Part shown: positions 9,483-55,360 of the stretch, in pieces | How positions within the stretch are numbered: position 1 is the first letter of the stretch | How the letters are laid out: every line of letters starts with the position of its first letter | Assembly (NCBI GenBank): GCA_021129515.1 | Contig: JAJOLD010000001.1 | Span: forward strand, 164,850 to 228,849 | DNA from: Minisyncoccota bacterium | GTDB lineage: Bacteria > Patescibacteriota > Minisyncoccia > Phycocordibacterales > UBA918 | DNA length: 64,000 nucleotides | Reading direction: 5' to 3' | Notes under the pieces: model-generated | What the model saw: only the letters and a program-made list of their open reading frames with translations | Told to the model about the DNA's origin: nothing | Database searches by the model: none | Made by a program: the position numbers and the translations under genes

Positions 9483-9504
9483 GGGCCTGTAGCTCAGTTT
9501 GGCT
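9483..9504 (+). pseudogene. tRNA-Ala 5' fragment (acceptor 5' strand, D-stem 5' strand, D-loop), 22 nt, followed by hairpin 9509-9535
   Basis: GGGCCTGTAGCTCAGTTTGGCT matches first 22 nt of the full tRNA-Ala with one change. Confidence 0.7.
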
Positions 9505-9542
9505 GGGGTTGAAAAAGTCTGGGGGACTTTTTCAAAGTTTTG

Positions 9543-9583
9543 ATTTATAAATTAACAAATGAGTTTATTGTTCAGTGCACTGT
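9543..9583. repeat. left arm of ~45-bp imperfect inverted repeat flanking tRNA-Ala
   Basis: atttataaattaacaaatgagtt...ttcagtgcactg is the reverse complement of 9659-9704. Confidence 0.7.
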
Positions 9584-9658
9584 GGGCCCGTAGCTCAGTT
9601 TGGCTAGAGCACCTGTTTTGCACTCAGGAGGTCGCTGGTTCGAGTCCAGTCGGGTCCA
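9584..9658 (+). tRNA. tRNA-Ala (anticodon UGC)
   Basis: cloverleaf folds manually; G3:U70 Ala identity pair; T-loop TTCGAGT; CCA not encoded. Confidence 0.9.
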
Positions 9659-9704
9659 CAGTGCACTGAACTTCAAACGTGAACTCATTTGTTAATTTAT
9701 AAAT
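9659..9704. repeat. right arm of inverted repeat flanking tRNA-Ala
   Basis: reverse complement of 9543-9583 with one indel. Confidence 0.7.
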
Positions 9705-9722
9705 ACTCAGGAGGTCACTGGT
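9705..9722 (+). pseudogene. partial tRNA-Ala copy (anticodon-loop 3' side through T-stem 5' strand), 17/18 match
   Basis: actcaggaggtcactggt vs tRNA ctcaggaggtcgctggt. Confidence 0.6.
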
Positions 9723-10033
9723 GAGAAGCGAATACTTGGAGTGAGAAGTGCTGGGAGCACTTTGCAAGAGGTTAACTGCTGCGCAAGCAGCGACAACCTG
9801 AACAGCTTCAGTGTGAAGTCGCAAGACCTTGGGAGATATTTCTGGAAGCATGAACAGAAATATCCTCAAGGTTGAAACAGGATGTTTCAAGAGGTTGTCA
9901 GTCACGTAAGTGACGACAACCTATACTGCATTTGTAAAATGCACAGAATCTGTATGCAAGGCATTCTAAAACTGCATTCGTAATCCAGATAAAAGTAAAC
10001 TTTATATCTGGTTACTCATTTGTTTTAGTAAGA

Positions 10034-10055
10034 TTCGAGTCCAGTCGGGTCCACA
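10034..10055 (+). pseudogene. tRNA-Ala 3' fragment (T-loop through acceptor 3' strand and discriminator)
   Basis: ttcgagtccagtcgggtccaca identical to 3' 22 nt of tRNA-Ala; separated from 9705-9722 by ~310-nt hairpin-rich insert. Confidence 0.7.
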
Positions 10056-10123
10056 ACACATAAGAAAACCTGCCCTGCGGTAGGTTTTTGCGTTGTGGAA
10101 GGTAAAACTATATTTTTTCTATT

Positions 10124-10190
10124 CCTACATTAAAAAATATTTTTGCCCGGGCAGGTGCTAGTTATGAGCGTTAGCGTGAGAAATGACTTA
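10124..10190. repeat. copy A of tRNA-flank mosaic repeat (cctacat...aaaaata...cccgggcaggt)
   Basis: shares motif with 52776-52844 and 54848-54915. Confidence 0.55.
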
Positions 10191-10425
10191 ACGTCATTTT
10201 GCAAGACTCACTAAGATATTTGAAGTATGAGAAATATCTTAGTGAGTAGACAGTTCCTGTAAGGAATTACTAGCGAACGACACCAGAAGGTCTCGCTTTG
10301 CTTTCGTTTCTATGTGGAAGGCGAAGCGCTGTGAGTTGCCCCTTACCTAGGGTGACGAACCGAGGGTCCGAACAGGAGGTTCTTAGCAAACAAAGTGAAC
10401 TTAGAAACCTGACGTCATCAGAAAA

Positions 10426-10465
10426 GCGAAAAGAGCCCTCTCACTAGTGAGAGGGCTCTTTTCGC
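10426..10465. terminator. 19-bp perfect hairpin (gcgaaaagagccctctcac-tag-gtgagagggctcttttcgc), T-tract on minus-strand side
   Basis: seen directly; lies in the ~600-nt leader upstream of the cyclase gene. Confidence 0.4.
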
Positions 10466-10705
10466 TTAGAAAAACAAGATTATCAATGTCGTATTCAATC
10501 AAAATGTTCTCAGCCATTTTTTGAGCCTTGTCGTAGTTGGGAATTCCCATATATCTATAGTATCCACCTCCTCAGTAAAATGTAACTTATCCCCCATGCC
10601 CTCCTGACAACTTCCGTAAGAGGCATACCCTACGTATAGGACTCGTGCTTGCAGCGGGTTCGTTTTGGGTATAGGGTAGGAGGACATCCTTCACGTACGA
10701 GCAAC

Positions 10706-28525: not shown

Positions 28526-28548
28526 CGTAAGTGGCTGCCGGAGGGACT
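28526..28548 (-). pseudogene. degenerate tRNA-Gln 3'-end copy (minus sense gacgagtccctccggcagcc)
   Basis: compare tRNA-Gln 3' end ttcgagtccctgtccggcagc; a second, inverted T-arm copy lies at 28601-28626 on the plus strand. Confidence 0.45.
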
Positions 28549-28642
28549 CGTCCTGACGGTTTCTAAACTCACTTCGTTCGTTAAGAACCGCGGGACACGG
28601 CTCGCAGACCCAAAGGGTCCCCTGCTCCGGCGGTTCGAGTCC

Positions 28643-28670
28643 CAAGAAAGGTGCGCAGGCACCTTTCTTG
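28643..28670. other. perfect 12-bp hairpin caagaaaggtgc-GCAG-gcacctttcttg
   Basis: seen directly; adjacent to tRNA-Gln fragments. Confidence 0.6.
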
Positions 28671-28680
28671 TCCAGTAGCA

Positions 28681-28791: not shown

Positions 28792-29481
28792 TTACTTTTG
28801 CGTGGCGATTATAGCATATATCCACCCCATAATGCGACGATTCATAGCTGTACTCTTCTTAACTCGCACTGATACCAAGCCTATGTACGAATCATCAACT
28901 TTCTTTCTAACAGTTTTGGGATTATGTTTCTTATATATGGTACGACCAAAGCTGTTTGCAGGAATGCTCAGTGCATCTGACCAAATCTTTATTATCTTTT
29001 TCTCTCTGGATTTATGATTCTCGTGCAAGTGCAATCGCAGAACAATATCTTGCTCACAGACCTCCGTAAACTTATATAGCCATGCAATAAACAACTTGAG
29101 CATATGAGGATCTGAATTACCGAAGTCAACCATAATACCTGTTCTGTCAGCACTTTTCTTCGCTCCTTCAGCCCAGTACAATGCAATACCAATGAAGAAT
29201 AGTTCTCTGTCAGTGAGGTGTGAGATATCTTCTTTACACATCTTATTAATCTTTTCAGTTTCCGCTATTCGTATCTCCCGTTTCCGAGCAGCTCCACGCA
29301 ATTGCGCAGCACGCTTCTTGTCCGTCAGCCGTTGCTTTTGCTTTTGACCTAAACCAACATCACGCAGCCAAAGAGAGAGCGTGGATTTTGATACTGGCAC
29401 AATGCGCAATATCTCATTGTATGTTTTACCCTGCTTGCGCAACGCGACTGCTTTCTGTTTCTCTTTCTCTTTTAGAGTCAT
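28792..29481 (-). CDS. HTH (resolvase/IS630-type) + LAGLIDADG-like homing endonuclease candidate
   Basis: N-terminal KQGKTYNEILRIVPVSKSTLSLWLRD HTH; FIGIALYWAEGAKKS as LAGLIDADG variant with acidic residue; stop 4 nt from tRNA-Gln 5' end. Confidence 0.4.
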   Translation of the reverse strand: MTLKEKEKQKAVALRKQGKTYNEILRIVPVSKSTLSLWLRDVGLGQKQKQRLTDKKRAAQLRGAARKREIRIAETEKINKMCKEDISHLTDRELFFIGIALYWAEGAKKSADRTGIMVDFGNSDPHMLKLFIAWLYKFTEVCEQDIVLRLHLHENHKSREKKIIKIWSDALSIPANSFGRTIYKKHNPKTVRKKVDDSYIGLVSVRVKKSTAMNRRIMGWIYAIIATQK

Positions 29482-48571: not shown

Positions 48572-48650
48572 GTAGGAATTGGTAGGTAAAACAGTACGGG
48601 GTACTGTTTTACCTCAAAATCATATGGAGCAATCCATGAGGGTTTGACCT
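48572..48650 (+). pseudogene. tRNA-Leu pseudo-copy with hairpin (48585-48613) replacing D-stem 3' and anticodon-stem 5' strands
   Basis: ggaattggta + hairpin + cctcaaaatcatatggagcaatccatgagggtttgacc parallels the tRNA. Confidence 0.55.
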
Positions 48651-50800: not shown

Positions 50801-52150
50801 ATGCAGCGTGTCGATTTTGCATACCCTCTGGTACACAAGTACGCACTACAATTAATTATTATGGTGGGATTGCTGCTTTCGTATAGCACAACCGCACATG
50901 CCGCACCCTGTCATACCTATACGTATGCAAACACACCACAGAGCACACTTGGTGCACCCTATGACGTGTTTGATAGTGCGCACCGCACACTCGTGCGTGT
51001 AGACTGCTCCGACAACACCATCCAACTCACCTTAGGAAACACCGGGCGCAAACACCTCATACACACAACTGGGTATATAGAGTTCTCGCCAGGCGTGTTT
51101 ACCCCTTTTTCCATTACTCCCGCTACTGCTGCCGTTACCCTTGATGCTTCATGGATAGTTGCGCACGCAGCGCAAGGCACAATCACGGTACCGCCCACCG
51201 CATATGGCACCACTGCGTATATCTATACATACCTCTGCCAAGTACGCAGCGGTGCTGAGGGCAAGAGCCTCAAGTGTGGATGTAATGCTACCTCGCAACA
51301 TTCGTGTACACAAACACACGGCACGTATGCAGGAAGCTGGACACTGCAAAAAGTAACCATTCCAACACCAACCACATCCACACACAATACCGAAAAAGGA
51401 TTCCGTATTCTTATCGGCACTAACCAGCTCTATCCAGAAGAAGCAGCGCAAGCACATCGCTTTGCAGCAGATGGTGCGTGGGTACTACATCGTAATAGTC
51501 CTCCAGGAATTAATTGGAAGCAAACACTCAAAACACTCAATGCAGATACCTGGACCGTTTCTGAAAACAATCCCGGAGGGACTGGCGGTGTGACAAACTT
51601 CACCGTTGCACATACCGGAAAAATGGTTGATGCTGCCATGTTTTATGAGGAGATACCCATGAAGACAATACTTCCTGATACCCTGATTGATCATTTTGCC
51701 GCACATACCGTGGCAGGATATGGCAGCATCGGAAAACGTATGGTGGTACTCACTCGTAGCTTTGGAGTCAGTGACCCCCGCCGTGCAGAGCTCATACATG
51801 CACTCTCACACCCAATGGTTGTGGGTGCAACCTTCGAGTTTAACCCGAGCATACTGAATCCTGCATGGAAGATACCCGAAGGCTGTGCTTATGTGCTCAG
51901 TCTTGGCAAGCAGTGTTACCTCCTTATGCCACCAATACGAGATGGCAATACCGATTTCCTCAGTAGCATACAACAGGCACTCAAAAAGTTTGAGCCAAGT
52001 GGTGTCCTCCGCAATCCCAACACCTATCTCATTCCCGCGGTCTATGCACGCCCCAATAATCAACACTTCCTCAGCACCAGCCCATCCGATAGAAATAGTA
52101 TTGAAGCAATTGTGACATGGCTCAAAGCATATCGAAGAGAATTCCAATAA
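50801..52150 (+). CDS. secreted hypothetical protein
   Basis: N-terminal signal peptide ...STTAHAAP; 449 aa no motif. Confidence 0.5.
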   Translation: MQRVDFAYPLVHKYALQLIIMVGLLLSYSTTAHAAPCHTYTYANTPQSTLGAPYDVFDSAHRTLVRVDCSDNTIQLTLGNTGRKHLIHTTGYIEFSPGVFTPFSITPATAAVTLDASWIVAHAAQGTITVPPTAYGTTAYIYTYLCQVRSGAEGKSLKCGCNATSQHSCTQTHGTYAGSWTLQKVTIPTPTTSTHNTEKGFRILIGTNQLYPEEAAQAHRFAADGAWVLHRNSPPGINWKQTLKTLNADTWTVSENNPGGTGGVTNFTVAHTGKMVDAAMFYEEIPMKTILPDTLIDHFAAHTVAGYGSIGKRMVVLTRSFGVSDPRRAELIHALSHPMVVGATFEFNPSILNPAWKIPEGCAYVLSLGKQCYLLMPPIRDGNTDFLSSIQQALKKFEPSGVLRNPNTYLIPAVYARPNNQHFLSTSPSDRNSIEAIVTWLKAYRREFQ

Positions 52151-52215
52151 CAATCATATACAGGAATCCGTTTGACCTTCTTCTCAGTTTGCCCTACCAT
52201 ATGGGGCATTGATTA

Positions 52216-52287
52216 GGGTCTATAGTTTAATTGGTAAAACAGCGGTCTCCAAAACCGCCGTTCTCAGTTCAAGTCTGAGTGGACCCG
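52216..52287 (+). tRNA. tRNA-Trp (anticodon CCA)
   Basis: manual fold; anticodon loop CUCCAAA. Confidence 0.9.
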
Positions 52288-52312
52288 CAGTGATTCAACA
52301 TTCTGTAATAGT

Positions 52313-52397
52313 CTTCTTACAGAAGCAGTATACCTTTTGGACATTCTTCATAATATCTCAAAAGGTCTTGCAAAAGTGCTTTGGCACTTTCTCACCC
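52313..52397. repeat. mosaic repeat piece (cttcttacagaagcagtatacc...ggtcttgcaaaagtgc), homologous to 54782-54850
   Basis: direct comparison. Confidence 0.55.
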
Positions 52398-52408
52398 AGA
52401 CTGTTTAA

Positions 52409-52449
52409 GTCCAAAACCAGCGGCCGTGGTTCGAGTCCACGTGGGCCCG
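52409..52449 (+). pseudogene. diverged tRNA 3' half (anticodon CCA onward: gtccaaaacc...cgtggttcgagtccacgtgggcccg)
   Basis: same layout as tRNA-Trp 3' half but different T-arm/acceptor sequence. Confidence 0.5.
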
Positions 52450-52456
52450 CTATCAG

Positions 52457-52489
52457 AAAATACCCAGCTTTTGCTGGGTATTTTCTTTT
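52457..52489 (+). terminator. rho-independent terminator aaaatacccagc-tttt-gctgggtatttt + cttttac
   Basis: perfect stem + T tract. Confidence 0.65.
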
Positions 52490-52693
52490 ACCCGAAGTTA
52501 AGTTTCAGAACTTTTTATTGTATTTTTTATTTTTTTATTGCATAGTTGAAATCAACCTGGGTACAAGTATGTGTTTGGAGTACTCCTGCTCATTACTCTA
52601 CTTTTCGTCAAGTTCAAGTGACGGTAACAAACCGCTTTCCCTTTCTGGGTGAGCGGTGTTTTTATACAACCAACTCCTGCAATATTTGAATGT

Positions 52694-52844
52694 TTGATTT
52701 GATATACTCCCTTTCTTTATACAGTTCTGAAAGCCACGTTTCTTGCCCGAAAAGAATTTGTATATTTTTGCTATACCTACATGCAAAAATACAAATTCTC
52801 GGGCAGGTAATTCTTATGAATGTAATGAATTAGAATTGGACGCC
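52694..52844. repeat. mosaic repeat copy B (R1 piece + cctacatgcaaaaataca...cgggcaggtaa...ttggacgcc)
   Basis: aligned to copies at 10124, 53669, 54782. Confidence 0.6.
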
Positions 52845-53127
52845 GAGTCCTCACGAACAAATCCTTTACCAAGAATCTTGCGCCGCCCGAGCAAACTGCT
52901 TTGCTTTTACTCGAGCGGGAGCCGCAGACAGATTTCTGGCTTCTGACATAGAGCCAGAAACAGTCGAGACGGGGTCGAGAGTACTTAGTGCTCACAACTA
53001 GCGAAGCGAATGAAAACACTTAGTCACTCGTGACCGCAATGAAATATTTAATAGTTACTGGTTATTTTTATGTACCCTACGTTTAAGTTCAGAACCTTCA
53101 TCAGCACTGTAGAGTTACAAAACCTAT

Positions 53128-53635
53128 ATGCAAATCATTTTATTTAGAGGGCGACCTGGTGTTGGAAAAACAACACCAACTAACGCATTTATAAAAAAGC
53201 ACCCTTACTTTCTCATTCGTAAGGACGACTTGTATGACGTAGCATCAGAGGTGCTCACTGAGCATCATGCCAGAAACAAAATCGCCTATGATGGCCTTTA
53301 TACACTGTTAGCAAGTAATGTGATGTACTCTAAGAGTGATTTTAGATTATCCGTTCCAGCACGATGGAGACATACACATCATGAGAAACTGGTGTCATCA
53401 AAACAATGTTGTTTTTAAATCAATTTTGGTGACCTGCTCTGACACACACGTTTGGTCAGAACGGCTAGCTGCCAGGTCTACAAACCCCAAACCAAATCAG
53501 TTGGTAACTGACTATGATGCATTTGAAAAAATGTACGGCACGATGCAGCTTGAAGCAGACACTGGTGAACTGGTTGTCGACAGCATACACCCAATTGAAA
53601 CAATCATACAGCAGGTTCGTAGTTTTGTGGCATAA
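53128..53635 (+). pseudogene. P-loop NTPase/kinase (AAA_33-like) split by a frameshift near 53340-53420
   Basis: Walker A GRPGVGKTT in ORF 53128-53418; continuation in ORF 53336-53635. Confidence 0.45.
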
Positions 53636-53668
53636 GCATCAATCGATACAAACTGTAGTGAGACCTGA

Positions 53669-53745
53669 ACGCTGGATTTGATACACTCCCGCTCCTCATG
53701 CAATTCTGAAAGCCACATTTTTTGCTCGAGAGTTGAAAATATGAA
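53669..53745. repeat. mosaic repeat piece R2 (ctggatttgatacactccc...ttctgaaagccac)
   Basis: ~60-nt similarity to 52694-52760; begins with inverted tRNA-Tyr T-arm-like ctggatttga. Confidence 0.55.
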
Positions 53746-53764
53746 GTTGCTGAGACATTCCCTA

Positions 53765-54139
53765 TTAACACTTCAATGTATTCCACCCACCCGTCTGTAA
53801 GAAGGATTGGTCAACAAGCATAGAGAGGATAGTGTCAATAATAAGCCATGCAGCAAGCATAATGATGAACCCTATCAGCACATTTGAAAAAATACCCTTC
53901 CCTTTCTGTATTTGGCTCATATTACCAGCAGCCGTAATCATCAAAAAACCTGCCCATGCAAATGCGATGCCAGCAAGTACTGTCGAGAATTTAATAATGA
54001 AGGTCAACATACGGTCAACCAATTCAAGCAGGTGACAAAAGTTACAATTTACTCCATTACACGGTACTAATTGTGCAAATGCCAAAGTAGGCACCAAGTA
54101 CCCTACCACCATTAAGATTGTCAACATGTAGAATCTCAT
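53765..54139 (-). CDS. VirB2/TrbC-like pilin candidate
   Basis: signal peptide, Cys-rich VPCNGVNCNFC, two hydrophobic helices, ~120 aa. Confidence 0.3.
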   Translation of the reverse strand: MRFYMLTILMVVGYLVPTLAFAQLVPCNGVNCNFCHLLELVDRMLTFIIKFSTVLAGIAFAWAGFLMITAAGNMSQIQKGKGIFSNVLIGFIIMLAAWLIIDTILSMLVDQSFLQTGGWNTLKC

Positions 54140-54248
54140 GCCTCAATAGTAGCACACCTTTTCTATCCACTTTCATACTTCAGTGAGTTATGGTACGGTA
54201 TACCCTGCGTTTTGTATTGCAATTTATGCAGAATACAGTTTCACACAT

Positions 54249-54594
54249 GCGTCGGTGGCAGAGTGAGAAAGCGTGGGACGCTTTCGCAAGACCTTGCCCG
54301 ATATTTTTTGAGGCGAATGCCGACAGTAAAATATCGACAAGGTGTACAGCGTCTGTAAGACGGAAAGGATGTCGGGACACTCTTCTAAGAAAAAGCGTTC
54401 TAACAAAAGAATAATTATGCGTCGGTGGCAGAGTGGATGAGAAGTGAACTACTTCACTTCTCATCTGGTCTTCGAGCGAATGCGAGAAGATTGGTCGTTA
54501 TGAGTATTTGCGCAGCTTATACGAATAGACCAAAGGAGGAAACGCGGTCGAACGCCCGCCAGAGAAAATGCGTTCTTACTAAAATCGGATACTT
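54249..54594 (+). repeat. two tandem ~170-176-bp units each containing leader + tRNA-Tyr 5' 17-18 nt + perfect hairpin (54267-54284; 54437-54464)
   Basis: GCGTCGGTGGCAGAGTG at 54249 and 54419 equals tRNA-Tyr 5' end; upstream leaders also similar. Confidence 0.7.
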
Positions 54595-54678
54595 GCGTCG
54601 GTGGCAGAGTGGTCAATTGCATCAGACTGTAAATCTGACGGGCTTCGCCCTACGCTGGTTCAAATCCAGCCCGGCGCA
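54595..54678 (+). tRNA. tRNA-Tyr (anticodon GUA), long variable arm
   Basis: manual fold; anticodon loop CUGUAAA; T-arm GCTGG-TTCAAAT-CCAGC. Confidence 0.9.
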
Positions 54679-54680
54679 CA

Positions 54681-54712
54681 AATAAAAACACCCCGGATGG
54701 GGTGTTTTTATT
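54681..54712 (+). terminator. rho-independent terminator aaaacaccccggatggggtgttttt
   Basis: perfect stem + T tract. Confidence 0.65.
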
Positions 54713-54759
54713 TGTGCGCCGGGAGCACGTGACCTGCGTCACGTGCGGCTGGATTTGAA
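54711..54759 (-). pseudogene. inverted copy of tRNA-Tyr 3' end interrupted by 23-nt palindromic hairpin (agcacgtgacctgcgtcacgtgc)
   Basis: tttgtgcgccggg[...]ggctggatttgaa is the reverse complement of ttcaaatccagcccggcgcacaaa. Confidence 0.6.
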
Positions 54760-54781
54760 AGGAATTCATATATTTTTCCTA

Positions 54782-54915
54782 CTTCTTATAGAAGCAGTAC
54801 ACCTTTGTAAACAAAGGTCTTGCGAAAGTCTCCAAGACTTTTTCACCTACATGGAAAAATATGAATTCCCGGGCAGGTAACTCTTGAGAGCGTAAGCGAA
54901 CTAGAGTTGGACGCC
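54782..54915. repeat. mosaic repeat copy C (complete version)
   Basis: cttcttatagaagcag...cctacatggaaaaatatgaattcccgggcaggtaactc...ttggacgcc. Confidence 0.6.
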
Positions 54916-55036
54916 AAATTCAGTCCCTATACTCACTCCCCTATCTAGCTGACAAACTCCAAAATCAGTCCTGCGTTTTTCAAAACAATGTAATAAAGAA
55001 ACCGCCCGACAGCGCAGGCGGCTCTCGGGCGTCATT

Positions 55037-55360
55037 TTAGTTTTCTCCTTGTTTCATGAGAACAGTAACTGCTTCGTATGCTTTTGGACACTCGTCGCGC
55101 ACCACAGATAGAAATACCTCAATCAGCAGATCTAGATTGCGTGCCATACCAGCTGCAACTCTTGGAGATATGCAGTGGGAGTAGTCGTCAAACAAGGACC
55201 ACGACACATCTTCCCAGGGTATTTGCTTGTCCGCCTCTTCGAGAGCAGCCGCATAGACATCAAAATGCGTTCGGTGGTCAGCTTTGATAAGAGGAGAGAT
55301 GGTTCCCAAAGGGCGATTTCTCCGTTGAAACCAACGTCGATATCCCAACCTTGCCTGCAA
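55037..55360 (-). CDS. hypothetical protein
   Basis: 107 aa ORF; hairpin + T tract downstream in minus sense. Confidence 0.3.
   Translation of the reverse strand: MQARLGYRRWFQRRNRPLGTISPLIKADHRTHFDVYAAALEEADKQIPWEDVSWSLFDDYSHCISPRVAAGMARNLDLLIEVFLSVVRDECPKAYEAVTVLMKQGEN

Follow-up and report, generated by a model that had tools for sequence, protein, structure and literature searches.

Why should a bacterial tRNA-Tyr gene be preceded by two copies of its own 5' end and followed by an inverted copy of its own 3' end? This question is raised by a locus of a Minisyncoccota bacterium from the Patescibacteria (GenBank assembly GCA_021129515.1, contig JAJOLD010000001.1, positions 164,850 to 228,849 of the forward strand), which was analysed as one stretch of 64,000 nucleotides (nt), called the window below. 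Coordinates are positions in this 64-kb window, on the plus strand unless the minus strand is named, and L-numbers denote the related loci and contigs that were compared. The original prediction, made from the sequence alone, had taken the copies for a tandem array of decoys. In our analysis the tRNA-Tyr gene instead appears to sit in a composite non-coding locus of tRNA-derived satellite units, which would have originated by duplication and would modulate the folding and processing of the tRNA-Tyr precursor (pre-tRNA-Tyr). We give a probability of about 0.5 to this reading; that the units exist and are conserved is well established.

The exact 17-mer GCGTCGGTGGCAGAGTG is found at 54249, 54419 and 54595, the three positions predicted for tRNA-Tyr heads, and the third copy is the start of the real gene. 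There is no fourth occurrence in the window, even at up to 3 mismatches, and three matches at that tolerance were reached by 0 of 100 dinucleotide-preserving shuffles. The distances from head start to head start are 170 and then 176 nt, and the identity runs 2-4 nt 5' of each copy. Both ARAGORN and Rfam call a single tRNA-Tyr, the intact gene at 54595-54679 (61.2 bits), with anticodon GTA, a long variable arm and no encoded CCA, while unit 1 (54249-54418) and unit 2 (54419-54594) are not called as tRNA by either program, even at E<=10. Both units start with the 5' end of tRNA-Tyr (17 and 18 nt, respectively), and their spacing lies within the 158-186 nt of the relatives. The break falls directly after the GG of the D-loop, as predicted, and the same breakpoint is seen in the Ala and Leu pseudo-copies of the window; the D-loop and the T-loop form the outer corner of the tRNA. 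What the units share is the head, 17-19 nt long, and a ~55-nt tail homologous to the leader of tRNA-Tyr itself. The sequences 5' of units 2 and 3 (54388-54436 and 54563-54612, unit 3 being the real gene) are 81% identical over 52 nt, and the alignment score of the whole tails (54365-54418 and 54530-54594) was matched by 0 of 1000 shuffles, in agreement with the earlier claim that the leaders are related. The interiors, on the other hand, resemble each other at the level of shuffled sequence (239 of 1000 shuffles score equally well). A homogeneous tandem repeat was rejected, because Tandem Repeats Finder (TRF) detected no array at the locus and the cores of the units show no relation to one another. 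The array of ~170-176-bp units that had been proposed is therefore retained as a periodic series of heads with the tRNA as its last member, and given up as a repeat of whole units, for only heads and tails recur.

Further evidence comes from the core of unit 2, whose head (tRNA-Tyr nt 1-18, 54419-54436) is followed by three hairpins with compensatory pairs, P1 (54436-54465), P2 (54469-54490) and P3 (54491-54533), and then by the tail and leader (54534-54594), which begin 3' of P3 with AGGAGG (54534-54539). The predicted fold has -47.8 kcal/mol (z = -5.0). When the locus was compared by BLAST with 119 loci fetched with the 17-mer, unit 2 and the tRNA aligned at 70-79% identity in L037, L068, L082, L056, L032 and L041, and further 5' the sequence of these six loci is unrelated to the window. 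A MAFFT alignment of 7 such units, which we call the U family, contains P1, P2 and P3 with 98.6% of base-pair cells paired, and 13 of the 31 pairs are changed on both sides. With 23 distinct sequences the doubly changed pairs rise to 23 of 31 and 98.1% of cells are paired, counts that are inflated because this larger alignment was fitted to the model. These covariation values were reached by 0 of 500 shuffles, and controls with slid partners stayed near zero. A covariance model (R1) gave 124.6 bits (E 6e-37) to window 54419-54539, which is itself one of the seven sequences that build R1; the model also finds units in L049/L089, L005 and L112, as well as a second, paralogous unit in L068. A metagenome scan with a pattern of the core only (P2 and the start of P3) added 13 contigs, each with the unit 5' of tRNA-Tyr. 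Altogether, about 20 other contigs from Patescibacteria have a unit of this type 5' of their tRNA-Tyr gene, and the tRNA-Tyr head is common almost only to Patescibacteria metagenome-assembled genomes. Unit 2 of the window has P1-P3 in the conserved order with the linkers CTGG and AAAGGAGG; conserved unpaired segments are also present in the U units. The sense fold is better than the antisense fold in 20 of 21 U units, by 11.4 kcal/mol on average. As judged from these alignments, unit 2 is a local copy of a vertically conserved, predicted three-hairpin RNA that is always upstream of tRNA-Tyr.

The heads follow the gene they precede. Over the first 18 nt, 19 of 23 units have 0-1 mismatch to their cognate tRNA-Tyr, with the first 10 nt kept in almost all, and D-stem variants (GTGG or GCGG for GCAG) occur in parallel in unit and tRNA in L127, L133, L129 and L131; the head was excluded from the metagenome search pattern. 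U arrays consist of 1, 2 or 3 units, with two subfamilies in different orders (L068, L126, L130, L135), and the tRNA leader of about 35 nt is also repeated before a unit in several genomes (L128 and the window, for example). Head tracking, variable arrays and repeated leaders together fit repeated unequal crossover between heads and leaders; selection for identity of head and tRNA, besides homogenisation, is possible. Two or three U units precede one tRNA-Tyr in L130 (9550-10162, minus strand), L126, L135, L137 and L068, and the two subfamilies differ in P2, with TCTTCGAGCGAATGCGAGAAGA in one and TCTGTCGCTTGCGACAGA in the other.

The head may also have a second partner within its own unit. In the minimum free energy (MFE) fold of unit 2 it pairs with 54466-54483 in a helix, P1ext, that competes with the compensated P2, and in L049 two head substitutions make P1ext a perfect 20-bp helix. 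The extended P1 proposed by RNAalifold was rejected as the only fold, since it conflicts with the compensated P2, and is kept as an alternative conformer. Many U units (L068, L126-L133 and others) further bear ATTGACCAC 3' of P3, a segment that is exactly antisense to GTGGTCAAT of the tRNA-Tyr D-loop and overlaps a fourth hairpin in part; it is not in the units of the window or L037. A leader peptide was considered for those U units that have AGGAGG followed by ATG (including a start-stop ATG-TAA), and was rejected as the ATG is not conserved; in several genomes the segment AGGAGGACAAT is taken up instead by pairing with a downstream ATTGTCCTCC. The upstream unit of L057 (at -195) is a pseudo-tRNA-Tyr that is intact as far as the anticodon GTA and is then broken by about 105 nt, which contain a hairpin like those of the downstream cores described below; this interruption may be what is left of an insertion, similar to an intron, into the anticodon loop.

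Downstream of the gene, 54680-54713 holds an A-tract, a GC hairpin and a T-tract, a terminator-like and symmetric element at the apex of a long palindrome. It is followed at 54714-54759 by the inverted copy of the tRNA 3' end, which is split by a palindrome-bearing insert just as predicted. The part at 54714-54723 is antisense to the acceptor 3' strand, that at 54747-54759 to the T-stem 3' strand and T-loop, and the two joined are the exact reverse complement of tRNA positions 54659-54679. The 23-nt insert between them (54724-54746) contains a 9-bp palindrome and forms a side hairpin, H0 (54725-54746), with the loop CTGC (54734-54737). A perfect 25-nt inverted repeat (54670-54694 and 54699-54723) includes the terminator-like hairpin, and the 108-nt region 54655-54762 folds at -78.5 kcal/mol (z = -13). 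The inverted 3' end is no lone oddity but the 5' arm of a downstream (D) unit that is conserved after many Patescibacteria tRNAs, and its sequence follows the T-loop and T-stem of the respective tRNA; the same layout of arm and side hairpin is found in L099, L056, L068, L030, L041, L071, L127 and L049. The core and decayed 3' arm of the D unit occupy 54760-54927, in the following order: hairpin A with stems 54761-54779 and 54853-54869, CGGGCAGG (54870-54877), hairpin B (54878-54908), GGACGCC (54909-54915) and, at 54916-54927, AAATTCAGTCCC, which repeats the T-loop and T-stem of the tRNA directly but in degenerate form. The loop of hairpin A holds an inverted copy (54780-54846) of a hairpin module, module A, to which we return with unit 1. 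A paralog of this core without the insert lies at 52745-52860, and homologous D cores are in L004, L057 and L069.

In the loci examined there are 43 cases of D units, after the tRNAs for Tyr, Trp, Leu, Cys and Ala. The series begins with a terminator-like hairpin and an antisense copy of the acceptor 3' strand; a side hairpin with the loop CTGC often comes next, and then the T-stem 3' strand and T-loop in antisense. The structured core, 100-130 nt long, leads to a direct copy of the last ~20 nt of the tRNA and to a second terminator. The cores belong to a few families, one a three-way junction with conserved GAAAG, CGAGNCGGGGTCG and GTGACC, another being module A. An antisense copy of the T-arm within 160 nt downstream was found for 52 of 171 non-redundant tRNAs, compared with 16 of 171 in a mismatched control. 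The arms also change with the T-loop they copy: TTCGAAT is matched by ATTCGAA in 22 cases, TTCAAAT by ATTTGAA in 13, TTCGATT by AATCGAA in 4, TTCGAGT by ACTCGAA in 3, TTCGAAC by GTTCGAA in 2, and TTCGACT by AGTCGAA and TTCAAGT by ACTTGAA in 1 case each. As each variant is matched by its complement, we infer that the arms form a maintained helix, either with their own 3' arm or with the tRNA 3' end. The fold in tRNA orientation was the better one in 6 of 7 D units tried. Like the upstream units, D units may be multiplied: two-unit arrays exist in L041 and L071, and L019 has an exact duplication of about 85 nt, including terminator and antisense arm, that indicates a recent unequal crossover.

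The core families cross the borders of tRNA species and perhaps of unit type. The D unit of tRNA-Gln (28532-28680, minus strand) has antisense and direct arms that fit tRNA-Gln, together with the same CTGC side hairpin as the Tyr units, so that one core family is common to different tRNA species. The loop of P1 is CTAC in the window (54449-54452) and CTGC in most upstream units, as it is in most downstream side hairpins; the common tetraloop suggests that upstream and downstream units share an ancestral 5' part. A hammerhead or kink-turn reading of the D core was rejected, since the patterns do not fit.

Unit 1 is built differently. Its head (tRNA-Tyr nt 1-17, 54249-54265) and its tail (54364-54418, homologous to the tRNA leader) enclose module A (54263-54363), with a layout of GTGAGAA-hairpin-GCAAGA, a long hairpin CCTTTG...CAAAGG (given as CCTTG...CAAGG for the copy in unit 1), TGTAC, and a hairpin with a GUAA loop. 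The unit folds at -42.4 kcal/mol (z = -3.6), and against R1 the stretch 54249-54342 reaches 20.6 bits, mostly from the head, so that unit 1 does not count among the core members of the U family. The two hairpins pointed out earlier, gaaagcgt-ggg-acgctttc at 54267-54285 and atgagaagtgaa-ctac-ttcacttctcat at 54437-54464, are both present; they had been called unrelated perfect hairpins, but they are not random: the former is the first hairpin of a repeated module and the latter is P1 of a conserved family. Module A has at least 5 copies in the window in both orientations, the others being at 54780-54846 and 52296-52396 (minus strand) and at 10176-10262 and 9741-9800 (plus strand), and it is also present in the relatives L037, L060, L068, L112, L128 and L130. 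In the D unit of tRNA-Tyr the inverted copy fills the loop of a 17-bp hairpin, and in the paralog at 52757-52805 that loop has 11 nt; from this filled and this empty site, module A behaves as a small mobile or exchangeable cassette. The CTGTAAG loop of unit 1 was considered as a mimic of the Tyr anticodon and rejected: the same GUAA loop is in units of Leu and Trp tRNAs, and a GNRA-type tetraloop is the better reading.

How might such a locus have arisen, and what might it do? Each upstream unit would have arisen by tandem duplication of a part of the locus (about 50 nt of leader and tRNA nt 1-18), its structured core would occupy the variable part of the D-loop, just 3' of the conserved GG, and in unit 1 the U core would have been replaced by the repeated hairpin module. 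The downstream unit would be a Y-shaped element, closed by a helix between a direct copy of the last ~20 nt of the tRNA and the antisense arm 3' of the terminator. In both cases it is proposed that the tRNA gene was duplicated in part and in tandem, together with its leader or trailer, and that structured cores were then replaced or inserted at one of two loops, the D-loop or the T-loop. By unequal crossover between heads and tails, both of them repeated, arrays would then be created and changed in length, and the heads would be kept identical to the tRNA. Partial tandem duplication, with later selection on RNA structure, is the likely origin of the units. They would be transcribed in the orientation of the tRNA, within the tRNA-Tyr precursor or by read-through, and would compete with, or stand in for, strands of the tRNA itself. 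The head of a U unit could form the acceptor and D stems with the 3' partners of the tRNA or be sequestered in P1ext, and the D arm could pair with the tRNA 3' end, as in the window hairpin of -78.5 kcal/mol, or with its own 3' arm, giving an end like a tRNA minihelix. The flanks may thus modulate the folding and processing of pre-tRNA-Tyr, and may be released by tRNA-processing enzymes as rtT RNA is from the Escherichia coli tyrT transcript. A split tRNA with trans-splicing was rejected, as the real tRNA-Tyr is intact. To our knowledge, the archaeal tRNA splicing endonuclease does not occur in bacteria.

We also put forward a bolder version, which we consider less likely than not. It states that Patescibacteria carry an undescribed class of tRNA-anchored structured RNAs, with a biogenesis borrowed from tRNA and with exchangeable cores. 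The upstream unit would reuse the 5' strand of the acceptor and D stems, and the precursor could mature to normal tRNA-Tyr or to a long isoform with the unit at the D-loop elbow, while the downstream units would be closed by the minihelix mimic. Using the tRNA maturation machinery for their biogenesis, the units would tune the supply of a single-copy tRNA, and the P1-P3 hairpins of the U family, the three-way junction of the D family and module A would be cargo moving between tRNA loci.

Several points weigh against a satellite locus that acts on its tRNA. Transcription and processing of the units are what we infer, and the identity of heads and tRNA can be explained by recombinational homogenisation without any function. 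Some pieces of the window do not look maintained: unit 1 is without the conserved U core, and the D unit of tRNA-Tyr is complete to GGACGCC with its 3' arm decayed to AAATTCAGTCCC. The mismatches in D arms show no bias of G-U over A-C, and the terminator-like hairpin and T-tract between the tRNA and the arm imply that the D unit is made only by read-through. The inflated pair counts of the 23-sequence alignment belong here as well, and so does module A, whose two orientations and filled and empty sites are typical behaviour of selfish DNA.

The last of these points leads to the rival that survives best, although on balance we doubt it: the units would be neutral or selfish by-products, duplicates from slippage or unequal crossover colonised by hairpin modules like miniature inverted-repeat transposable elements (MITEs) or repetitive extragenic palindromic (REP) sequences, with no role in the cell and with structure conserved only because the modules need hairpins to propagate. 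The copies of module A and its filled and empty sites speak for it, as do the variable number and order of units, the decayed arms (the 3' arm in the window, and in L081 the acceptor part of the arm), and the fragments that all five tRNA loci of the window carry, each with 0.2-1.5 kb of tRNA-derived structured sequence. However, the U2-type unit is a single-locus element, always 5' of tRNA-Tyr and conserved between lineages with otherwise unrelated flanks; it has 23 of 31 compensated pairs together with conserved unpaired segments, and D arms stay complementary through at least 6 T-loop variants. Moreover, Patescibacteria have genomes among the smallest of bacteria, with tRNA genes that are mostly single-copy, and such small streamlined genomes nonetheless keep 0.5-1.5 kb of this kind of sequence at their tRNA loci.

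We consider it unlikely that the units are scars or miniatures of integrative elements, in which a tRNA segment serving as the core of an attachment (att) site was duplicated around a tiny non-autonomous insert by site-specific recombination into the tRNA gene; the two arms, antisense and direct, might then fold into an att site in single-stranded form. Each unit does lie between direct repeats of tRNA segments, element integration is known to yield fragments of tRNA genes (PMC9897764), the displaced 3' half after tRNA-Trp is unlike the resident tRNA, and copies of D cores occur in one predicted viral contig. Nevertheless, there is no integrase or mobile-element gene in or beside the arrays, where the neighbours are housekeeping genes; the inserts are only 100-230 nt long (150-160 nt where open reading frames (ORFs) were checked, none of note); the upstream repeats run about 50 nt into the leader at 80% identity with no sharp end of a core; and the U core has no occurrence in IMG/VR. 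The same core families are also found at five tRNA species with arms matched to each, and a fixed attP cannot explain units whose arms match each of five species. The viral contig just mentioned, L140 (IMGVR_UViG_3300033463_005745), has two D-type cores with terminator, antisense arm and CTGC hairpin, and ARAGORN finds no tRNA in the stretch examined; it could be a phage of the candidate phyla radiation (CPR) or a misclassified CPR fragment.

Less probable still is a reading of the units as molecular decoys, the word used in the original prediction; their tRNA-like heads would then titrate a factor that binds tRNA, for instance an anticodon nuclease or an enzyme that processes or modifies tRNA. 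The heads are identical to the first 17-18 nt of the tRNA, including the conserved GG, and a U stands at position -1 before nearly all heads and tRNAs. However, RNase P, synthetases and anticodon nucleases are not known to recognise a 5' strand of 18 nt that lacks its 3' partner; an anticodon arm is missing from the units, and the GUAA loop of module A is also at Leu and Trp tRNAs. The decoy label is not supported.

An assembly collapse or chimera is effectively refuted: two of the five contigs that could be compared end inside the locus, as assemblies often do at repeats or palindromes (L124 at 54597 in the repeat, L122 at 54680 in the palindrome), but the other three, from different samples, cross the whole array, and homologous arrays exist in dozens of unrelated assemblies, complete chromosomes included. 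The five contigs (from 3 ENA assemblies and 2 Logan runs) were retrieved with an 81-amino-acid (aa) version of the adjacent pilin-like protein that is on record, the 124-aa call having no exact record. They are colinear with 50-58 kb of the window, gapless and at 99.8-100% identity, and the three that span the locus hold all three heads with 0-1 substitutions in the array; in all contigs together the array has four substitutions. The locus is not an assembly artefact, because five independent assemblies reproduce it, and the earlier claim of a real array holds. The source environments are represented by the BRAZ22-1 samples, and the runs SRR27899015 and SRR16916497 come from the same population. 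Population variants in these assemblies are at 54370, 54348, 54541 and 54560, of which T54370G, in two contigs, turns AAAGGATG in the tail of unit 1 into AAAGGAGG, the motif conserved in U-family units. The syntenic relative L125 (46% identical) has no tRNA-Tyr at the corresponding position and is therefore uninformative.

When compared with known systems, the closest analogue appears to be the 178-bp repeats of E. coli tyrT and their rtT RNA. We confirmed three 178-bp repeats in tyrTV (spacing 178/178), of which the last overlaps the 3' end of tyrV, with the small RNA RttR and tpr annotated; RttR has been linked to processing of the tyrT transcript (10.1101/2024.07.17.603846). Both arrangements have tandem units at tRNA-Tyr of similar length (178 bp, compared with 170/176 in the window and 158-186 in its relatives), each unit bears a terminal tRNA fragment, unequal crossover has been invoked, and in E. 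coli the unit is set free from the tRNA transcript as a small RNA. The E. coli units are, however, downstream of the gene, contain the 19 nt of its 3' end and share 95% identity with each other, whereas the array of the window is upstream, with the 5' 17-18 nt, a leader and unrelated cores, and the Patescibacteria units have antisense arms and compensated hairpins in addition. The rtT model (RF00391) has no match at the gathering threshold or at E<=10, and near-identical units are absent here.

Other comparisons are more distant. As in att duplications, a partial direct copy of a tRNA lies beside the intact gene (PMC9897764), but here there are no recombinase or cargo genes, the inserts of 100-230 nt are conserved and structured, and 5' as well as 3' fragments occur, those of the 3' end with an antisense arm. 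GOLLD and ROOL are likewise ornate, hairpin-rich non-coding elements with GNRA loops that are habitually beside tRNA genes (PMC5737381); the window units are far smaller, have no Rfam match, and include sense and antisense copies of the ends of the neighbouring tRNA, which neither of these RNAs is reported to have. Many tRNA genes of Patescibacteria contain group I introns, another structured RNA associated with tRNA genes in the same phylum (PMC13011429). These introns are self-splicing, sit in the anticodon loop of otherwise undetectable tRNA genes and match Rfam, whereas the tRNA-Tyr of the window is uninterrupted, its inserts are at the D-loop or T-loop of partial pseudo-copies, and Intron_gpI has no match at the locus. 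A guide array of the CRISPR or TIGR type does not agree with the period of 170-176 nt and the negative result of TRF, and no Cas or Tas-like neighbour was found. In Rfam 15, searches of the whole window at the gathering threshold, and of the locus and eight related loci at E<=10 or E<=1, returned tRNAs only. Over 52100-55100 no T-box leader or other cis-regulatory RNA model matched, and at E<=10 there were only sub-threshold chance matches (mir-3165, for example, with 27.7 bits compared with a gathering score of 90). As full-text literature searches also found no description of such units, conserved tRNA-derived structured units flanking the tRNA genes of Patescibacteria appear to be a previously undescribed pattern.

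The pattern could represent a control of tRNA folding and maturation that has so far gone unrecognised, a new route by which small RNAs borrow tRNA processing, or a new kind of tRNA-targeted selfish element. It would be a second and much broader natural example of the long-known and poorly understood tyrT/rtT arrangement of E. coli. For annotation it matters that the fragments can mislead tRNA finders and that the units are not in Rfam.

The remaining tRNA loci of the window show further variations. The tRNA-Ala gene (9584-9659) is nested within a broken pseudo-tRNA-Ala (9483-10100), and a ~43-nt inverted repeat (9541-9583 and 9660-9706) brackets the real gene. On its 5' side the pseudo-copy has a fragment (9483-9504) and a hairpin; after a middle fragment (9707-9724), hairpin modules are inserted in its T-loop over about 310 nt, and it closes with 22 nt of exact 3' sequence (10034-10055) and a terminator. 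After this locus, 10100-10470 holds a D-type core (CCCGGGCAGG...CTAGCGAACGACACC) with a copy of module A, which ends in a perfect 44-nt palindrome (10424-10467). A partial pseudo-tRNA-Leu (48576-48650) abuts tRNA-Leu: it starts with a piece of the D-loop, has a 13-bp hairpin in place of the D-stem 3' strand and the anticodon-stem 5' strand, and goes on with a 37-nt copy, at 94.6% identity, from the anticodon loop to the T-loop. At 52289-52490 there are tRNA-Trp, an inverted module A, a diverged 3' half of tRNA-Trp with a different T-arm (52397-52451) and a terminator; D units follow tRNA-Trp in the relatives L004, L067, L068, L069 and L135. D-type cores unattached to a tRNA lie at ~52790-52850 and 52880-53030.

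As for the genes, the window encodes TopA, RelA/SpoT, ParB, TruB, MiaA, an ATP synthase subunit, GH57, GH15 and a PF18895 pilin-like protein, and the neighbours of the tRNA-Tyr locus are the pilin-like protein, MiaA, NUDIX, TruB and a peptidase. The window is taken to be part of the chromosome of a Patescibacteria (CPR) bacterium. A phage or plasmid origin of the window was rejected, since megablast gave no match and the distant mode returned phage tRNA-Tyr genes that align over the tRNA body only. The only neighbour that hints at a mobile element is a 229-aa ORF just upstream of tRNA-Gln (28792-29481, minus strand), which has weak HTH_23/HTH_7 matches only, of the resolvase or transposase type. 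A 64-nt repeat (52687-52750 and 53666-53729, 80% identity) brackets a kinase pseudogene region, where two overlapping ORFs of 96 and 99 aa (53128-53635) with a P-loop start and a weak AAA_33 match look like a frameshifted kinase gene; at the same position L125 has an intact gene of the SKI family.

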